A program made the translations under genes and the position numbers. Under the pieces are notes generated by a model. The model was not told the DNA's origin and searched no databases. It saw only the letters and a program-made list of their open reading frames with translations. Source: an uncultured virus (IMG/VR IMGVR_UViG_3300009502_000043) (Duplodnaviria > Heunggongvirae > Uroviricota > Caudoviricetes). Taken from it: 64,000 bases of DNA. Positions 3,673 through 59,944 of the stretch are shown one piece after another. Numbering within the stretch: position 1 is the first letter of the stretch; the number at the start of each line of letters is the position of its first letter. The DNA is taken from the IMG/VR virus record IMGVR_UViG_3300009502_000043; one strand, given 5' to 3'.

Positions 3673-5208
3673 ATGAGATTAACTGTTGTACCAGGATCAA
3701 ATAACAAAACTTATGTAGCAATTCAAGATATTGTTACAAAGGAAGATATGGAATTACATGATGTAATTGGAAAAGTTTTGTCAAGAACTGAATTTAAACC
3801 ATTTCTTCAAGGTTTCAATAAAACAATATCATTTTCTTATCTTTTTAATGAAATATTTTTTCCTGTTCAATTCTGGGATGATGTTAAAAAACAATTAGAA
3901 AAAATATCTTCAACTCCGATAACATTGATCAATGAAGATATGATGTATAATAATGACATAACTCGTGATCATTTTGATGAATTTGTTGAATCATTACAAT
4001 TACCTGAAGATATTGATACTGTTTCTGAAGATTATGTGTTTCAACAAGATTCAGCATTTTTAGCAATTCAGAATAAAATTGCACGTATTGATGTATCTAT
4101 GGCTGGAGGTAAAACTTTCATTACCTATATGTATTGTCGTTATTTACATGAATATATAATTCCAAAAAATAAAAAAATATTAATTGTTGTTCCTTCCAAG
4201 TTACTTTGTCAACAATTACAAAAAGATTTTGGTCATTATGATAGTAAATATAAACAAAATCCAAAAGAAGAAGGTGAAAGAAGAAAATTAGTTGTCGAAA
4301 CAATATATTCAGGTGCAACCAAATATTTAGATTCAGATATAATTTGTGGAACTTATCAAAGTTTATGTAATTATGATATTGAATATTTCACAGATTTTAG
4401 TGTTGTAATATGTGATGAAGTTCAAGGTGCAAAAGCTTACAGTATTAAAAACGAAATATATACGAAAACTTTAAATGCAGAATACTTTTTTGGTATGTCT
4501 GGAACTCATCCAGATTATAAAACATTAGATTATTTACATATTGTGTCAATGTTTGGAAAAGTAGTCGTAACAAAAACTTCAGCTGAATTGATTGATGCTG
4601 GTATAATAACACCTGTTAAAATTTCAGCAATAAAAATTAATTATAAAGAAGCTGGTGGATTTGCTCAAGCATTAAAAGATCAAGGAATTTTAGGTACTGA
4701 AAAATATGCAATGGAAAAAGAATGGTTCCATTCAAATAAAGATAGGACAAAATTAATTGGTAAATTATTGAACGGAATTAAAGGAAATAGTTTGATAATT
4801 GTTGATACAGTAGAATATTGTTCACAATTAAAAGAATATTTGGTTGAATTTTGTCCAGGAATACGTTTTGAAATAATTCATGGAAAAGTCAATAATAGAA
4901 CCGATATTATTGAAGAAATGAGAATTTCTACTGAATTTGCACTTATTGGAACATATGGAACAATGTCTACAGGAGTTTCAATCAAAAATATTGCAAACAT
5001 ATATTTTCCTGATGGTGGAAAATCTGAAAGAAGAATAAGACAAACTTGTGGTAGAGGAATGAGATTATTTCCTGATAAGGAATTTTGTAACGTTTTTGAT
5101 TTTCAAGATATGATGCCATGTTGTGCATTTAAAAATCATGCTGCTGAAAGAAATAGAATTTATCGTAAAGAACAATTTCCGATAAAAATAATAAATGTGG
5201 AGTTATAA
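3673..5208 (+). CDS. uvsW: UvsW-like SF2 DNA helicase
   Basis: Walker A MAGGKT, LIVVP, TYQSL, DEVQ, GMSGT, STGVSI, QTCGRGMR. Start moved to ATG 3673 because the upstream TTG lies in the terminator. Confidence 0.8.
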   Translation: MRLTVVPGSNNKTYVAIQDIVTKEDMELHDVIGKVLSRTEFKPFLQGFNKTISFSYLFNEIFFPVQFWDDVKKQLEKISSTPITLINEDMMYNNDITRDHFDEFVESLQLPEDIDTVSEDYVFQQDSAFLAIQNKIARIDVSMAGGKTFITYMYCRYLHEYIIPKNKKILIVVPSKLLCQQLQKDFGHYDSKYKQNPKEEGERRKLVVETIYSGATKYLDSDIICGTYQSLCNYDIEYFTDFSVVICDEVQGAKAYSIKNEIYTKTLNAEYFFGMSGTHPDYKTLDYLHIVSMFGKVVVTKTSAELIDAGIITPVKISAIKINYKEAGGFAQALKDQGILGTEKYAMEKEWFHSNKDRTKLIGKLLNGIKGNSLIIVDTVEYCSQLKEYLVEFCPGIRFEIIHGKVNNRTDIIEEMRISTEFALIGTYGTMSTGVSIKNIANIYFPDGGKSERRIRQTCGRGMRLFPDKEFCNVFDFQDMMPCCAFKNHAAERNRIYRKEQFPIKIINVEL

Positions 5209-19037: not shown

Positions 19038-19065
19038 CCATATTATCAGAAAATAAAGGATAAAT
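19038..19065 (+). promoter_or_regulatory. Putative phage promoter motif, exact
   Basis: CCATATT-N13-GGATAAAT. Confidence 0.75.
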
Positions 19066-56005: not shown

Positions 56006-56605
56006 ATGAAAAACAAGAACACTCGTAATTTCCTTGAAGTTATGATGAAATTACGTCGCATTTCGATGAATTTGGAAATTGAAAAAGTAACTAAAAGCTT
56101 AGAAATTATTCTTGGTCCACAAGACACAATTAGCTTTGATGTTACAAAGAAATGTTTCATTATTAATTCGATAACTTGCGGATTACATTTTCCAAATTGG
56201 CACCCTAAACCATCTGATATTGATTTCATATTGGGCAATTTTTCAGATGATCAAATATTTTTAGCAACTGAAAAAATAAATATCGAAATATTCAATATTT
56301 ATAAAGACATGGATGCTATATTGTTATATGGTAGTTTATATTCCATATTAATGTTGATGAAACTTCCTGAAAATCAATTGACACCAAGAATTACATTAAA
56401 TTTTGGAAAATATTCAATCATTTATAATGATTTTGTAAATAAATTTATGATTGCCGATATTGAACAAGATTCGGAATTTTTTCATGAATTTAATCCAAAT
56501 ATATTATTTCCAGAATTGTTGAAACATCAAAAATATTCTGATGTTTTTAAAGCTTTGGATGAAACTTTTAATAAATTGGTATTTAAATCTAATTTACTAC
56601 GTTAA
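56006..56605 (+). CDS. hypothetical protein
   Basis: 199 aa ORF. Confidence 0.6.
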   Translation: MKNKNTRNFLEVMMKLRRISMNLEIEKVTKSLEIILGPQDTISFDVTKKCFIINSITCGLHFPNWHPKPSDIDFILGNFSDDQIFLATEKINIEIFNIYKDMDAILLYGSLYSILMLMKLPENQLTPRITLNFGKYSIIYNDFVNKFMIADIEQDSEFFHEFNPNILFPELLKHQKYSDVFKALDETFNKLVFKSNLLR

Positions 56606-57402
56606 TGTCTGAAATTATTGATGCGAAAATAATAACACCGAAACCAGTTGTATCTTGGTGGAAAAGTGGTGACCCATGCTTGTATATATCTAAATGGAGA
56701 AATAAATTGACAGAAATAAATGTTATCGAAACAAAACATTTATCTGATGAATTTATTCAAATTTGTATTGAAGAAAAACATTCCATATTTCTCCATGTAA
56801 ATATTACAGGTATGGGTAAAACTATTTTTGAACCAAAAATTCCAACCGTAAAGGAAACGTTTTTCCAAATAAAAAAATTAATTGATTTAGGATTTCCACA
56901 AAAACAAATACTTGTTTGTGTTGATCCAATATTACCAAATGATAATGGATTGAATGCTCTTAAACTTTTACTCAAAGTATTTACAGAATATAGAGTATTA
57001 AGATTAAGAAATGTTAGATTTAATGTTCTCCATTATAAAGAAATCGAAAGTACATCAAATAAAAAATATACAATTGCAAATCAGAACATAACTTCCAGAC
57101 AATCAACAAAAGGAATTATGCAATATTTAACATCTTCACCAACTTTTTTTAAAGATTATTATAAATTGATTGATCAGTATAAAACAATTATTTCTGTTGA
57201 TCATTCAATTGAAGCAAAAGTTGGAATACGTGAACTTATTGTATTTGGTTATAAAAATGAATGGATTAATACTGATGGAAGTCGAGAAAAAATTATCGAA
57301 TATGAAAAAGGTAATAAATTCAAACCTTTATTAAATGTTATATCTGATAAAAATCCAATTCGTTGTCAAAATCGATGTTTGCTTTGTGCACATAAATATT
57401 GA
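56605..57402 (+). CDS. DUF1848-like (radical SAM/spore photoproduct lyase-related) protein
   Basis: ETK, H.NITG.G....EP.IP, DPI.P, C-terminal CxxxCxxC (CQNRCLLC). Confidence 0.6.
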   Translation: MSEIIDAKIITPKPVVSWWKSGDPCLYISKWRNKLTEINVIETKHLSDEFIQICIEEKHSIFLHVNITGMGKTIFEPKIPTVKETFFQIKKLIDLGFPQKQILVCVDPILPNDNGLNALKLLLKVFTEYRVLRLRNVRFNVLHYKEIESTSNKKYTIANQNITSRQSTKGIMQYLTSSPTFFKDYYKLIDQYKTIISVDHSIEAKVGIRELIVFGYKNEWINTDGSREKIIEYEKGNKFKPLLNVISDKNPIRCQNRCLLCAHKY

Positions 57403-57531: not shown

Positions 57532-57837
57532 ATGGACAACGATAAAAACAATAATATTTCTGAAATAGATTTGACGAAGATAGATTGGAATAAATTGTCT
57601 GTAGAAGAATTTAATCAATTAGAATTAGAATTAAATCAAAAAGAAAGAAAAGCAAGAATTGCTGCTCAAGTTGGTGCCAAAAGAATAACAGGGAATACAA
57701 CGATTGTAATCAAAGGTGCCATGTATAATATTAAAACAGTAGATTACAATCGTTTAAAAGCTATGAAATCTCCAAAAGCAAAAGAAAAATTAATCAAAGA
57801 GATATTAGCAACAAATCAGAAAATTGAGAGTATTTAA
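57532..57837 (+). CDS. Small protein with basic C-terminal half
   Basis: 101 aa; C-terminal segment similar to that of ORF 57876. Confidence 0.65.
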   Translation: MDNDKNNNISEIDLTKIDWNKLSVEEFNQLELELNQKERKARIAAQVGAKRITGNTTIVIKGAMYNIKTVDYNRLKAMKSPKAKEKLIKEILATNQKIESI

Positions 57838-57875: not shown

Positions 57876-58439
57876 ATGACACAAGAAAATCAGAATGCTG
57901 ACGTTTTGTCAGAAGGTTTGGAAGTTGGTGAAGTTGTAGCACCAGAAACAGGCGAAAAAGCTCCTAAAGTAAAAAAAGATCAAACACCGGAAGAAGCCGC
58001 ACAAATTGAAGCAGGTATTGCAAAAATCAAACAATTTGGTGTAGGTACAAAGTTTGCCTTGGTTATGGACAACCTGGCAGTTGCCTGGAACAGTGGTGAC
58101 AAAGATGTTTTGACTGCTAACAAAGAAGCTCTTATGAAAGAGTTTGGTGGTTCTGAAAACCTTAAAGATTATATCGATGGTGATTTCCAGGCTGAACTTA
58201 CCGAAATTCAGGGAACTGCAAAAGTTTGTTCTATCCTGAATAACGTAAAATCATTTTACGCTCGCCGGGCAACAACAACCAAAGCAAAAACTGTTCAGGT
58301 TAATATCGGTGGTACATTGTACAATGTTGATGCAGCTTACTATGCTGAAATTGCAAACGAAACTCGCGAAACAAAACGTGAACTTTTACTTGCACATGCC
58401 GGTACCCAGGTTGCTACATCAGTACCAGAAGTACTGTAG
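57876..58439 (+). CDS. hypothetical protein, probably highly expressed
   Basis: 187 aa; visibly more C/G-ending codons (AAC, ATC, GCC, CAG) than neighbours; own terminator. Confidence 0.75.
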   Translation: MTQENQNADVLSEGLEVGEVVAPETGEKAPKVKKDQTPEEAAQIEAGIAKIKQFGVGTKFALVMDNLAVAWNSGDKDVLTANKEALMKEFGGSENLKDYIDGDFQAELTEIQGTAKVCSILNNVKSFYARRATTTKAKTVQVNIGGTLYNVDAAYYAEIANETRETKRELLLAHAGTQVATSVPEVL

Positions 58440-58540: not shown

Positions 58541-58950
58541 GGGGAATCTTGGTTTTGACAGCATAGAGACAGGTAATCATTCAACACGAATATGATAAAA
58601 TTTCGGTAAAAAGTTATCAAAAACAATAACAGGCAAAGGAAAAATCGTGAATTTCTTAGACAAGGTCTTTGGAAATTCAAACGAAGAAGTATCAATGCAA
58701 ATTGCTGCTTAATTTCATAACTTATTATTTTTTAATGAAAAGAGTTTGGGATTTACAGAGTTAATGAAAATTCCTGGTGGAAACTGGTGGAGTGTATCAA
58801 AACCAGTCAGCCCAAATTTTGGTTGTTTTATTAAAAGGTTTTGTCCTGAAAAACAACATACTGATGTGATTGTGAAAGAATCACAAGAAGTTGTAGCAAG
58901 ATGATTATTGGTCCTTTGTTTGGACACCGGTTCGAGTCCGGTATTCTCCA
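58541..58950 (+). ncRNA. ssrA: tmRNA
   Basis: 5' GGGGAAT pairs with 3' ATTCTCC-A, giving the G3:U Ala identity pair; GGTTTTGAC D-loop; T-arm ACCGG-TTCGAGT-CCGGT; GTAATCAT/ATGATTAT helix; tag frame 58632-58712 ending IAA-stop; CCA not encoded. Confidence 0.93.
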
Positions 58951-58989
58951 CTAATAATGATTTGAATAAAAATCAGATCAAACAATATT

Positions 58990-59532
58990 TAAAACATTCC
59001 GCCAATGTAGGCACCGAAATGACGGTTATATGCCATCTCCGTCATAGCCTTCCGGAATCCGCCGGGAAATTTGGATAAAGAAGTTTGGATTAAATTCCGA
59101 TATGTAACTTCATCCTACTCCCATCATGAAGTGTTTGAAAAAAGTAGAATATCAAACACAAAACGATATGGTTCTGCTCATAATATGAATGAAGATCATA
59201 TTCGCCTCGCTAAGGTACCCAGGAAGTATTTGAATAATCGAATATTACTGTAAAGTGCAAAAAAATGTTGGAATGATTCTTATGTGCACGTATTGCTTGA
59301 ATTTCAACAGTAAACCAATTAGATTTTTCGGTTATATTCCGCCAGTAGAATATCGGTTAGTCGTGAATTGCTTCCGATATATCTTATATCGCGGTCAAAG
59401 ATTGTCCGGTCAAGATTCGCGTATTCGCTTACAGTACCGACCGATCAAGTTTCGGAAATCATTTGGTTGAAAATTTTGAGTATCTTTAATATTTGAAAGT
59501 CTTACGACAGTAGAATATGCTCAAAATTTTTT
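58990..59532 (+). ncRNA. Candidate large structured non-coding RNA (unassigned)
   Basis: GC-elevated, no credible ORF, at least 10 local and long-range helices with G-U pairs favouring the + strand, repeated AGTAGAATAT hairpin module; lies between tmRNA and tRNA. Confidence 0.6.
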
Positions 59533-59768
59533 ATTTGGTAATTTATTAAAAGTTAGTGTGACGTTTGTTAAGTAATTTCGAGTTGCCGAATATTTTTGAT
59601 TTAGTCAAGAATTTCGTTCAAACAAACATTAGTTTTTGATTCTTTATAGGTGAGAGTCGAAAATGTGGACTGGTTCCGAGCCTCTCAGGAAAAAATCGGA
59701 AAATAATAAAATGTTTTCTGTTTCCATGGAAAAGAATACCAGCAATCAAGAAATTTCTTTTCCAAAAC

Positions 59769-59841
59769 TGTCTTGTGGTGTAATTGGCAACACGTCTGGT
59801 TTTGGTCCAGAAGAGTTCAGGTTCGAGACCTGATGAGACAA
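59769..59841 (+). tRNA. tRNA-Gln (anticodon TTG)
   Basis: Acceptor TGTCTTG/TGAGACA-A, D-arm GTGT-AATTGGCA-ACAC, anticodon arm TCTGG-TTTTGGT-CCAGA, T-arm TCAGG-TTCGAGA-CCTGA; CCA not encoded. Confidence 0.93.
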
Positions 59842-59911
59842 CGATTTTAGTGAATATAAGGTTAAAGGTTTAAAGGTTTAGTGATTATTTGGCTCATAAG
59901 AGCTTTGATTA

Positions 59912-59944
59912 AGAGGGAAGCAAAGCAATTTGTTTCCCTTTTTT
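59912..59944 (+). terminator. Intrinsic terminator closing the RNA cluster
   Basis: GAGGGAAGCAAA-GCAA-TTTGTTTCCCTT plus T run. Confidence 0.8.

Follow-up and report, generated by a model that had tools for sequence, protein, structure and literature searches.

Downstream of the tmRNA gene of an uncultured tailed phage lies a candidate large non-coding RNA (58990..59535, + strand, ends inferred), whose core is kept structurally in related phages. The best reading of the analysis is that it would be an uncatalogued RNA of the ROOL/GOLLD kind, acting through its fold. Positions throughout refer to the window, by which we mean the whole stretch of 64,000 nucleotides that was analysed, and L-numbers denote related loci. 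Probably the RNA is some 400–550 nt long, has a core locked by two pseudoknots, is processed and stable, and has a role based on its shape, and copies 2 and 3 of a word that recurs within it are specific to this lineage.

Few large structured phage RNAs comparable to ROOL and GOLLD are known, and what they do has yet to be explained. Another class, not related to these, that is small, has a core defined by two pseudoknots and offers natural compensatory variants would lend itself to direct testing. The phage clade also carries a tmRNA and a second uncatalogued RNA motif ahead of its tRNAs. The repeated words are of lesser weight, being genuine yet, as it looks, private to one genome.

Genomic setting

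The window belongs to a large phage with an AT-rich genome, which carries genes for terminase, topoisomerase II, clamp loader, ribonucleotide reductase and NAD ligase. DNA matching it was found in five DNA runs from two studies, all of them freshwater. Between 57400 and 60600, four lake runs from one study are letter-identical to it wherever their contigs cover it, with the exception of the tRNA.

The RNA cluster begins after a gene for a 187-residue protein (57876..58439, +), which is constantly upstream of it and served as the marker for relatives; the protein has no Pfam, PHROG, PADLOC or fold match. It is followed by a tmRNA (58541..58953, +; Rfam RF00023 at 55.4 bits, and ARAGORN), by 815 nt without a credible gene (58954-59768), by tRNA-Gln(TTG) (59769..59842, +; Rfam and ARAGORN), and by an intrinsic-terminator-like hairpin (59911..59942, +; terminator scan), which closes the cluster. 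The 815-nt interval folds more stably than all 20 of its shuffles (z -4.4). This folding, together with the homologous core in relatives, bears out the original prediction of a structured non-coding RNA at this place.

The surroundings yielded several minor observations. The tag encoded by the tmRNA starts with glycine, as in Bacteroidota, which is a hint at the host; L015:2942-3350 is a permuted tmRNA. The gene at 57532-57837 forms an adjacent pair with the marker gene in every locus that reaches that far, and the C-terminal parts of the two products are similar by eye, so that they are perhaps paralogues. A conserved 265-residue protein (56605-57402) weakly matches a DUF1848-type PADLOC model (E 4e-7), and its relatives are named DNA repair photolyase by two sources. 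Finally, the word GGATA-A-ATA stands upstream of genes at window positions 19057, 22166, 52129 and 59979, and also ahead of the first gene past the RNA cluster in relatives; it is likely to be the phage promoter.

Relatives and tracing of the core

Alignment of the 187-residue protein led to 33 related loci, and the 265-residue protein to 2 more. Duplicates (L008, L009, L012, L016, L022 and refetched records) and three loci that extend no further than the gene (L028, L029, L033) were excluded, leaving 27. As far as the RNA cluster, the relatives share the same order of genes. The core was traced by structure in nine of the 27 loci, and no trace of it was found in the other 18, some of which are cut short.

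Plain sequence alignment of the interval with its relatives is close to noise, with pairwise z values of at most 4.8, and -0.6 for L010, which is the window's sister on the marker tree. MAFFT misaligned the window and L010, and RNAalifold predicted zero pairs on the raw alignment A5, in which registers slip by at least one column. In a multiple alignment, the first copy of the repeated word falls on a hairpin loop common to L003, L011, L017, L021 and L023. A covariance model built from the window alone, with no pseudoknot (R1), was run on 89 kb and ranked L017 (E 0.0016) and L002 (E 0.0024) on top and L014 eighth (E 0.74), while being blind to the cores of L003, L010, L011, L021 and L023. Model R2 placed L004 first in 99 kb, at an E of only 0.12; it missed L010 and returned nothing under E 1.4 in nine further loci. 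The core of L010 was spotted by eye and then checked computationally, and has hairpins B, C and D and pseudoknot 2 (described below). Loose structure descriptors gave many false matches and were used as leads only.

Mapped on the marker tree, the core requires five changes among the loci scored (L010 excluded), which fits an old element that was lost or diverged several times. Further afield, blastn against named phages returned short pieces only, those listed being tRNA, and neither tblastn of the 265-residue marker against named phages nor a GTDB scan with the same marker gave a match. Pattern scans of IMG/VR DNA found known clade members and chance matches only (chance matches being 2 of 3 and 4 of 6). 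The core pattern was present in at least 116 stretches, of which 116 were scored by script and 64 by R1, and only L002 was recovered. The RNA has so far been seen only in one phage clade.

Fold of the core

The core begins with hairpin A (59131..59159, +), in which the stem 59131-38/59152-59 closes a 13-nt loop that contains the first copy of the repeated word AGTAGAATAT (59143-52); it has equivalents in relatives. Within this loop, the eight nucleotides 59143-50 pair at 8 of 8 positions with the strand 59171..59178 (+), forming pseudoknot 1. Next comes hairpin B (59182..59202, +), which has a purine-rich loop and follows the pseudoknot strand in all nine sequences examined and in L010. The loop of hairpin C (59204..59216, +), at 59208-11, pairs with 59254..59257 (+) to give pseudoknot 2. 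Between the two strands of this helix is hairpin D (59220..59250, +), whose place is conserved and whose letters are variable.

Pseudoknot 1 is shown by covariation across relatives. Its strands are AGUAGAAU/GUUCUGCU in the window, UGAAGAAU/GUUCUUCA in L002, UUCAGAAU/GUUCUGAA in L014 and GAGCAAAU/GCUUGCUC in L004, and 45 of 48 pairs are retained across six non-redundant sequences with differing letters. When the strands were permuted between sequences, none of the 720 assignments but the cognate one attained this number, even with the 3' strand re-chosen for each pairing (mean 37.5, next best 43). Registers were partly picked by eye, and the best one for L017 overlaps hairpin B. With the alignment columns left unedited, 75% of the helix is paired, and both sides have changed at six of the eight pairs. 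L010 has 8 of 8 pairs with one bulged C; in this locus the pseudoknot strand faces competition from a local hairpin.

For pseudoknot 2 the score is 75, with 56.9 as the mean over permutations (11 of 5040) and with the reservation that its windows were picked by eye. L010, which is outside the permutation set, has 4 of 4 pairs.

Other elements flank the core. On its 5' side is a C-rich hairpin region (58996..59125, +), which opens with the first copy of ATTCCGCCA, the GCC of which pairs with 59010-12; sequence conservation of this region was looked for in the relatives and none was found. A possible extra H-type pseudoknot at 59064-59115 (59064-71 with 59092-98, and 59073-85 with 59105-15) was read from the sequence and the ensemble. 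On the 3' side, a segment TTTCGG...CCGC (59326..59342, +), with a putative CGG/CCG pairing, is common to the window and L010 and contains most of the second copy of ATTCCGCCA. The segment after it (59343..59404, +) is 55 nt longer than in L010 (62 vs 7 nt), and opens with the second copy of AGTAGAATAT, which is predicted to be mostly paired to 59374-84 with probabilities of 0.8-0.9. It is followed by hairpin F (CGGT/ACCG; 59405..59440, +) and by a terminal hairpin (59469..59532, +; z -3.7) with a 15-bp outer stem, a T6 run at its end and the third copy of AGTAGAATAT in a loop-E-like internal loop. The terminator scan made no call at the terminal hairpin, and such a loop is found in none of nine relatives.

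Repeated words within the RNA

The original prediction had centred on short words that recur within the RNA, and every one of them is at the position given for it. The word AGTAGAATAT occurs at 59143-52, 59344-53 and 59509-18 (copies 1, 2 and 3), ATTCCGCCA at 58996 and 59336, and ATTCGC at 59200, 59415 and 59423, the last two being inside the variable loop of hairpin F. A fourth AGTAGAATAT is found at 4809, within a helicase gene. In addition, RTRTTTGAA occurs three times.

Some of this recurrence is above chance in this genome, as the prediction had proposed to check. Of 5000 dinucleotide shuffles of 58954-59768, 81 contain some 10-mer three times, as do 3 of 71 further 815-nt blocks taken from the window. 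One in 2000 shuffles and one in 71 blocks has a single hexamer that could close four 6-bp stems; the shuffle figure is biased toward the observation because shuffles lack real stems. Two loop-E-compatible hairpins (copies 1 and 3) compare with a null mean of 0.05 (P 0.003, 300 shuffles). The C-rich motifs were correctly located, and their recurrence is weaker: any 9-mer occurs twice in 4805 of 5000 shuffles and any 6-mer three times in all 5000, and for GC-rich words the figures are 265 of 3000 (9-mer twice) and 34 of 3000 (6-mer three times). The two copies of ATTCCGCCA and the three of ATTCGC are close to chance, with the three of TCCGCC at about 1%.

Copies 1 and 2 of AGTAGAATAT have 11 nt in common, and copies 2 and 3 agree at 15 of 17. 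The repeat families are confined to 11–17 nt, at spacings of 201 and 165. Internal duplication is the simplest source of these repeats, and the four-stem recurrence could reflect recent selection for repeated sites.

The copies had been proposed to form equivalent hairpin modules, each with its GAATAT paired to an upstream strand. The ensemble pair probabilities of these stems are 0.00 for copy 1, 0.01-0.02 for copy 2, 0.23-0.57 for copy 3 and 0.92-0.96 for the fourth GTATTT/GAATAT stem (59226-45), which is hairpin D. In this ensemble the stem is unformed at copies 1 and 2. At copy 1 the stem of hairpin A is preferred, at -6.3 vs 0.0 kcal/mol for the proposed stem (non-canonical pairs left uncounted). 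The probability of being unpaired in the nested ensemble is 0.83 for copy 1, 0.005 for copy 2 and 0.019 for copy 3. Rather than equivalent modules, the copies occupy three different structural settings, with copy 1 a pseudoknot strand by covariation.

Copy 3 had also been likened to a loop-E/sarcin-ricin motif. The arrangement of GAA opposite AGTA is indeed present on paper, and copy 1 has it as well, which had been overlooked. When GAA opposite AGUA is required to lie between two helices, copy 3 would fit on paper, in a computation with canonical pairs, and copy 1 has only the outer helix. In this model copy 3 is the one plausible loop E, and we infer that the look of copy 1 is a by-product of the last GA of its stem, an A-rich loop and the pseudoknot strand.

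Conservation of the modules in homologues, the lack of which the original prediction had named as grounds for its refutation, was not found. An exact repeat of a relative's own loop 10-mer occurs in none of six relatives, although L017 and L023 have a copy with one mismatch, and L010 has AGTAGA once only. Loop-E-like hairpins, TCCGCC and ATTCGC are each absent from all nine relatives. Copies 2 and 3 are situated in a 55-nt insertion and in a terminal hairpin that only this phage has. They are best explained as duplications within this lineage or as drift in variable segments, and not as conserved binding sites.

It had been suggested that the RNA is a protein sponge with a logic like that of CsrB. 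The sponges CsrB and RsmZ carry many GGA motifs in hairpin loops. They share with the present RNA the repetition of short words in a non-coding RNA, but here ANGGA occurs once and GGA 11 times in 815 nt, as in relatives (counted regardless of loop position). Since the repeats are not conserved, the copies are in unlike structures and ANGGA is found once, the suggestion lacks support. A version confined to this lineage is that one protein would bind at each of several RURUUUGAA...GAAUAU hairpins, which an older pseudoknot core acquired recently, as in a sponge or a pseudo-ToxI. Here the hexamer that closes four stems, the two loop-E-compatible hairpins and the threefold RTRTTTGAA speak in its favour, and the expansion of repeats by phages against ToxN offers a precedent (PMC3475682). 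Against this, the feature is absent from nine of nine relatives, the stem is unformed at copies 1 and 2 and at copy 1 would disrupt the conserved pseudoknot, and ANGGA occurs once. Moreover, the copies are 165–201 nt apart and not in tandem, and R2 found no further core at copy 2 or copy 3. We consider this version unlikely.

The suggestion that ATTCCGCCA is antisense to the D arm of tRNA-Leu fares worse, and has very little probability indeed. An exact complement of the word does exist in a tRNA-Leu of a related phage (L042:8785). However, a pair of GC-rich 9-mers turns up in 265 of 3000 shuffles, TCCGCC is found in none of nine relatives, and both copies of ATTCCGCCA are predicted to be paired (probability unpaired 0.003-0.004).

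Comparison with known RNAs

Rfam gave no match to ROOL, GOLLD, OLE or raiA at the gathering score, nor at E values up to 10 (E 3 in one search), and no relevant Rfam family matched at relaxed thresholds in the window, L002, L010 or ten other loci. ROOL RNAs are described as large and pseudoknotted, with few conserved nucleotides, carried by phages near tRNA islands, and of unknown function (PMC5737381, PMC12286853). The present RNA resembles them in its setting in a phage tRNA island and in its low sequence conservation, and differs in its smaller core, its lack of an Rfam match even at E 10 and its restriction to a single phage clade. GOLLD has a lake and phage origin, is beside tRNA genes, and consists of a conserved domain with variable linkers (PMC12286853). 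All of these features recur here, but the RNA does not reach the length of many GOLLD RNAs (800 nt or more), it has no Rfam match, and the conserved 3' domain of GOLLD was not detected. The presence of several pseudoknots backed by covariation, as in both families, extends here to two helices, in a small sample and with registers partly set by eye.

ToxI and phage pseudo-ToxI are pseudoknot RNAs (PMC3475682). The present RNA is likewise a phage pseudoknot RNA that could be a decoy; in contrast, it has no tandem array of 36-nt units, holds two unlike knots in one scaffold and does not match ToxI in Rfam.

Several other identities were tried and rejected. The RNA is not a duplicate of the adjoining tmRNA (similarity z -1.2 to 1.2 in six of six loci), nor an rRNA mimic (z <1 against E. 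coli 16S, 23S and 5S). The three copies of AGTAGAATAT are in one reading frame (spacings 201 and 165), but stops interrupt this frame, and Pfam gives no match for it. Read as a promoter region, the RNA has 8 sites, against 10.3 in shuffles.

In the literature, where most subscription journals are outside the scope of the search, no description of this RNA was found. Three short motifs and three record ids were absent from six supplementary files of PMC10690425, whose IMG/VR candidates are 29–151 nt long.

Possible roles

We hypothesise that the RNA would be transcribed together with the tmRNA and tRNA-Gln, that processing would free it from the transcript, and that the stable product would build up in infection. 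It would then work by its three-dimensional shape, as is supposed for ROOL and GOLLD. The most likely job, which we put forward tentatively, is that of a single-site decoy or scaffold that engages a host protein of translation or of RNA-cutting defence.

It is also conceivable, if doubtful, that the covarying helices of loop and strand join separate molecules into an oligomer or cage, in which copies 2 and 3 are extra partners for 59171-78. A covarying contact in ROOL that was first taken as tertiary turned out to be intermolecular (PMC12286853). The duplex of pseudoknot 1 is worth -7.3 kcal/mol, and copies 2 and 3 could be opened for 2.5-3.3 kcal/mol. On the other hand, loops of 5, 1 and 11 nt around two 8-bp stems would suit an intramolecular H-type knot, three donors would have to share a single acceptor strand, and the two additional donors lack conservation. 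A bolder form of the idea, to which we give a similarly low weight, is that this large phage RNA represents a new class of its own, with no relationship to ROOL or GOLLD, and would form a protein-free oligomer through these helices. The extra copies would then add intermolecular contacts or allow partner switching, and the neighbouring pseudoknot ahead of the tRNA would be another new class, with a part in tRNA maturation.

The RNA sits within a tRNA/tmRNA cluster and ahead of a motif adjoining tRNAs, a position that would also suit a processing or protective element, the folds of which merely set ends and shield the tmRNA–tRNA precursor from nucleases. A multi-domain core with two pseudoknots and a terminal hairpin of its own is more than a spacer needs, which counts against this proposal, and the core persists without a tmRNA in L002, L004 and L014. 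The proposal is somewhat less likely again.

An RNA among tRNA and tmRNA genes could also be a circularly permuted, minimal RNase-P-like ribozyme that matures phage tRNAs, with pseudoknot 1 presumably corresponding to P4. The two share pseudoknots and tRNA gene neighbours, and scattered motif likenesses can be seen by eye in single homologues. However, the conserved regions I-V of RNase P RNA were not recovered, by sequence or in normal or permuted order, and the ordered-block score of 23.4 compares with 19.0 +/- 4.3 for shuffles and 85–95 for controls. L003 (33.3) is above its 25 shuffles, but so is L025, in which no core was found, and the blocks are off their proposed places. RF00010 and RF00011 gave no match at the RNA in four phage records, nor did profiles from 71 type A and 16 type B genes. 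We regard a ribozyme of this type as very improbable.

Other structured elements in the island

Between the RNA and tRNA-Gln there is a separate conserved pseudoknot motif of about 75 nt (59648..59725, +), which usually precedes a tRNA. Its helix P1 pairs 59652-56 with approximately 59682-86, and 59649-51 pair with 59695-97. The motif is also found in L001, L002, L003, L004, L007, L010, L014, L015, L017, L020, L021 and L023. P1 is paired in 12 of 12, with compensatory changes, and the 5' strand is paired with the 3' hairpin loop in 10 of 12 by script. It has no Rfam match. It could guide tRNA processing.

The islands of the relatives hold further structured elements. By eye, L010:3055-3165 resembles part of domain I of 23S rRNA; its z of 3.1 against E. 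coli 23S equals the best of 40 shuffles, and blastn gave no match. Ends resembling those of tRNA, which have an acceptor stem and T arm but lack a normal anticodon arm, are found at L003:8140-8235, L011:8080-8175, L017:8085-8185, L001:6950-7000 and L007:6880-6920. They were missed by ARAGORN, and that of L017 scores 25.6 bits as a tRNA. At L021:1865-1939 and L023:921-995, directly after the marker gene, there is a low-scoring tRNA called as Phe with an AAA anticodon. More structured non-coding blocks are present at L003:7890-8540, L017:7848-8468, L023:3860-4368, L013:2950-3120 and L015:1910-2355, and in L025, L027 and L018. Their folding z values range from -1.8 to -13.5 (8 shuffles), and one block is common to L003 and L017 (z 33).
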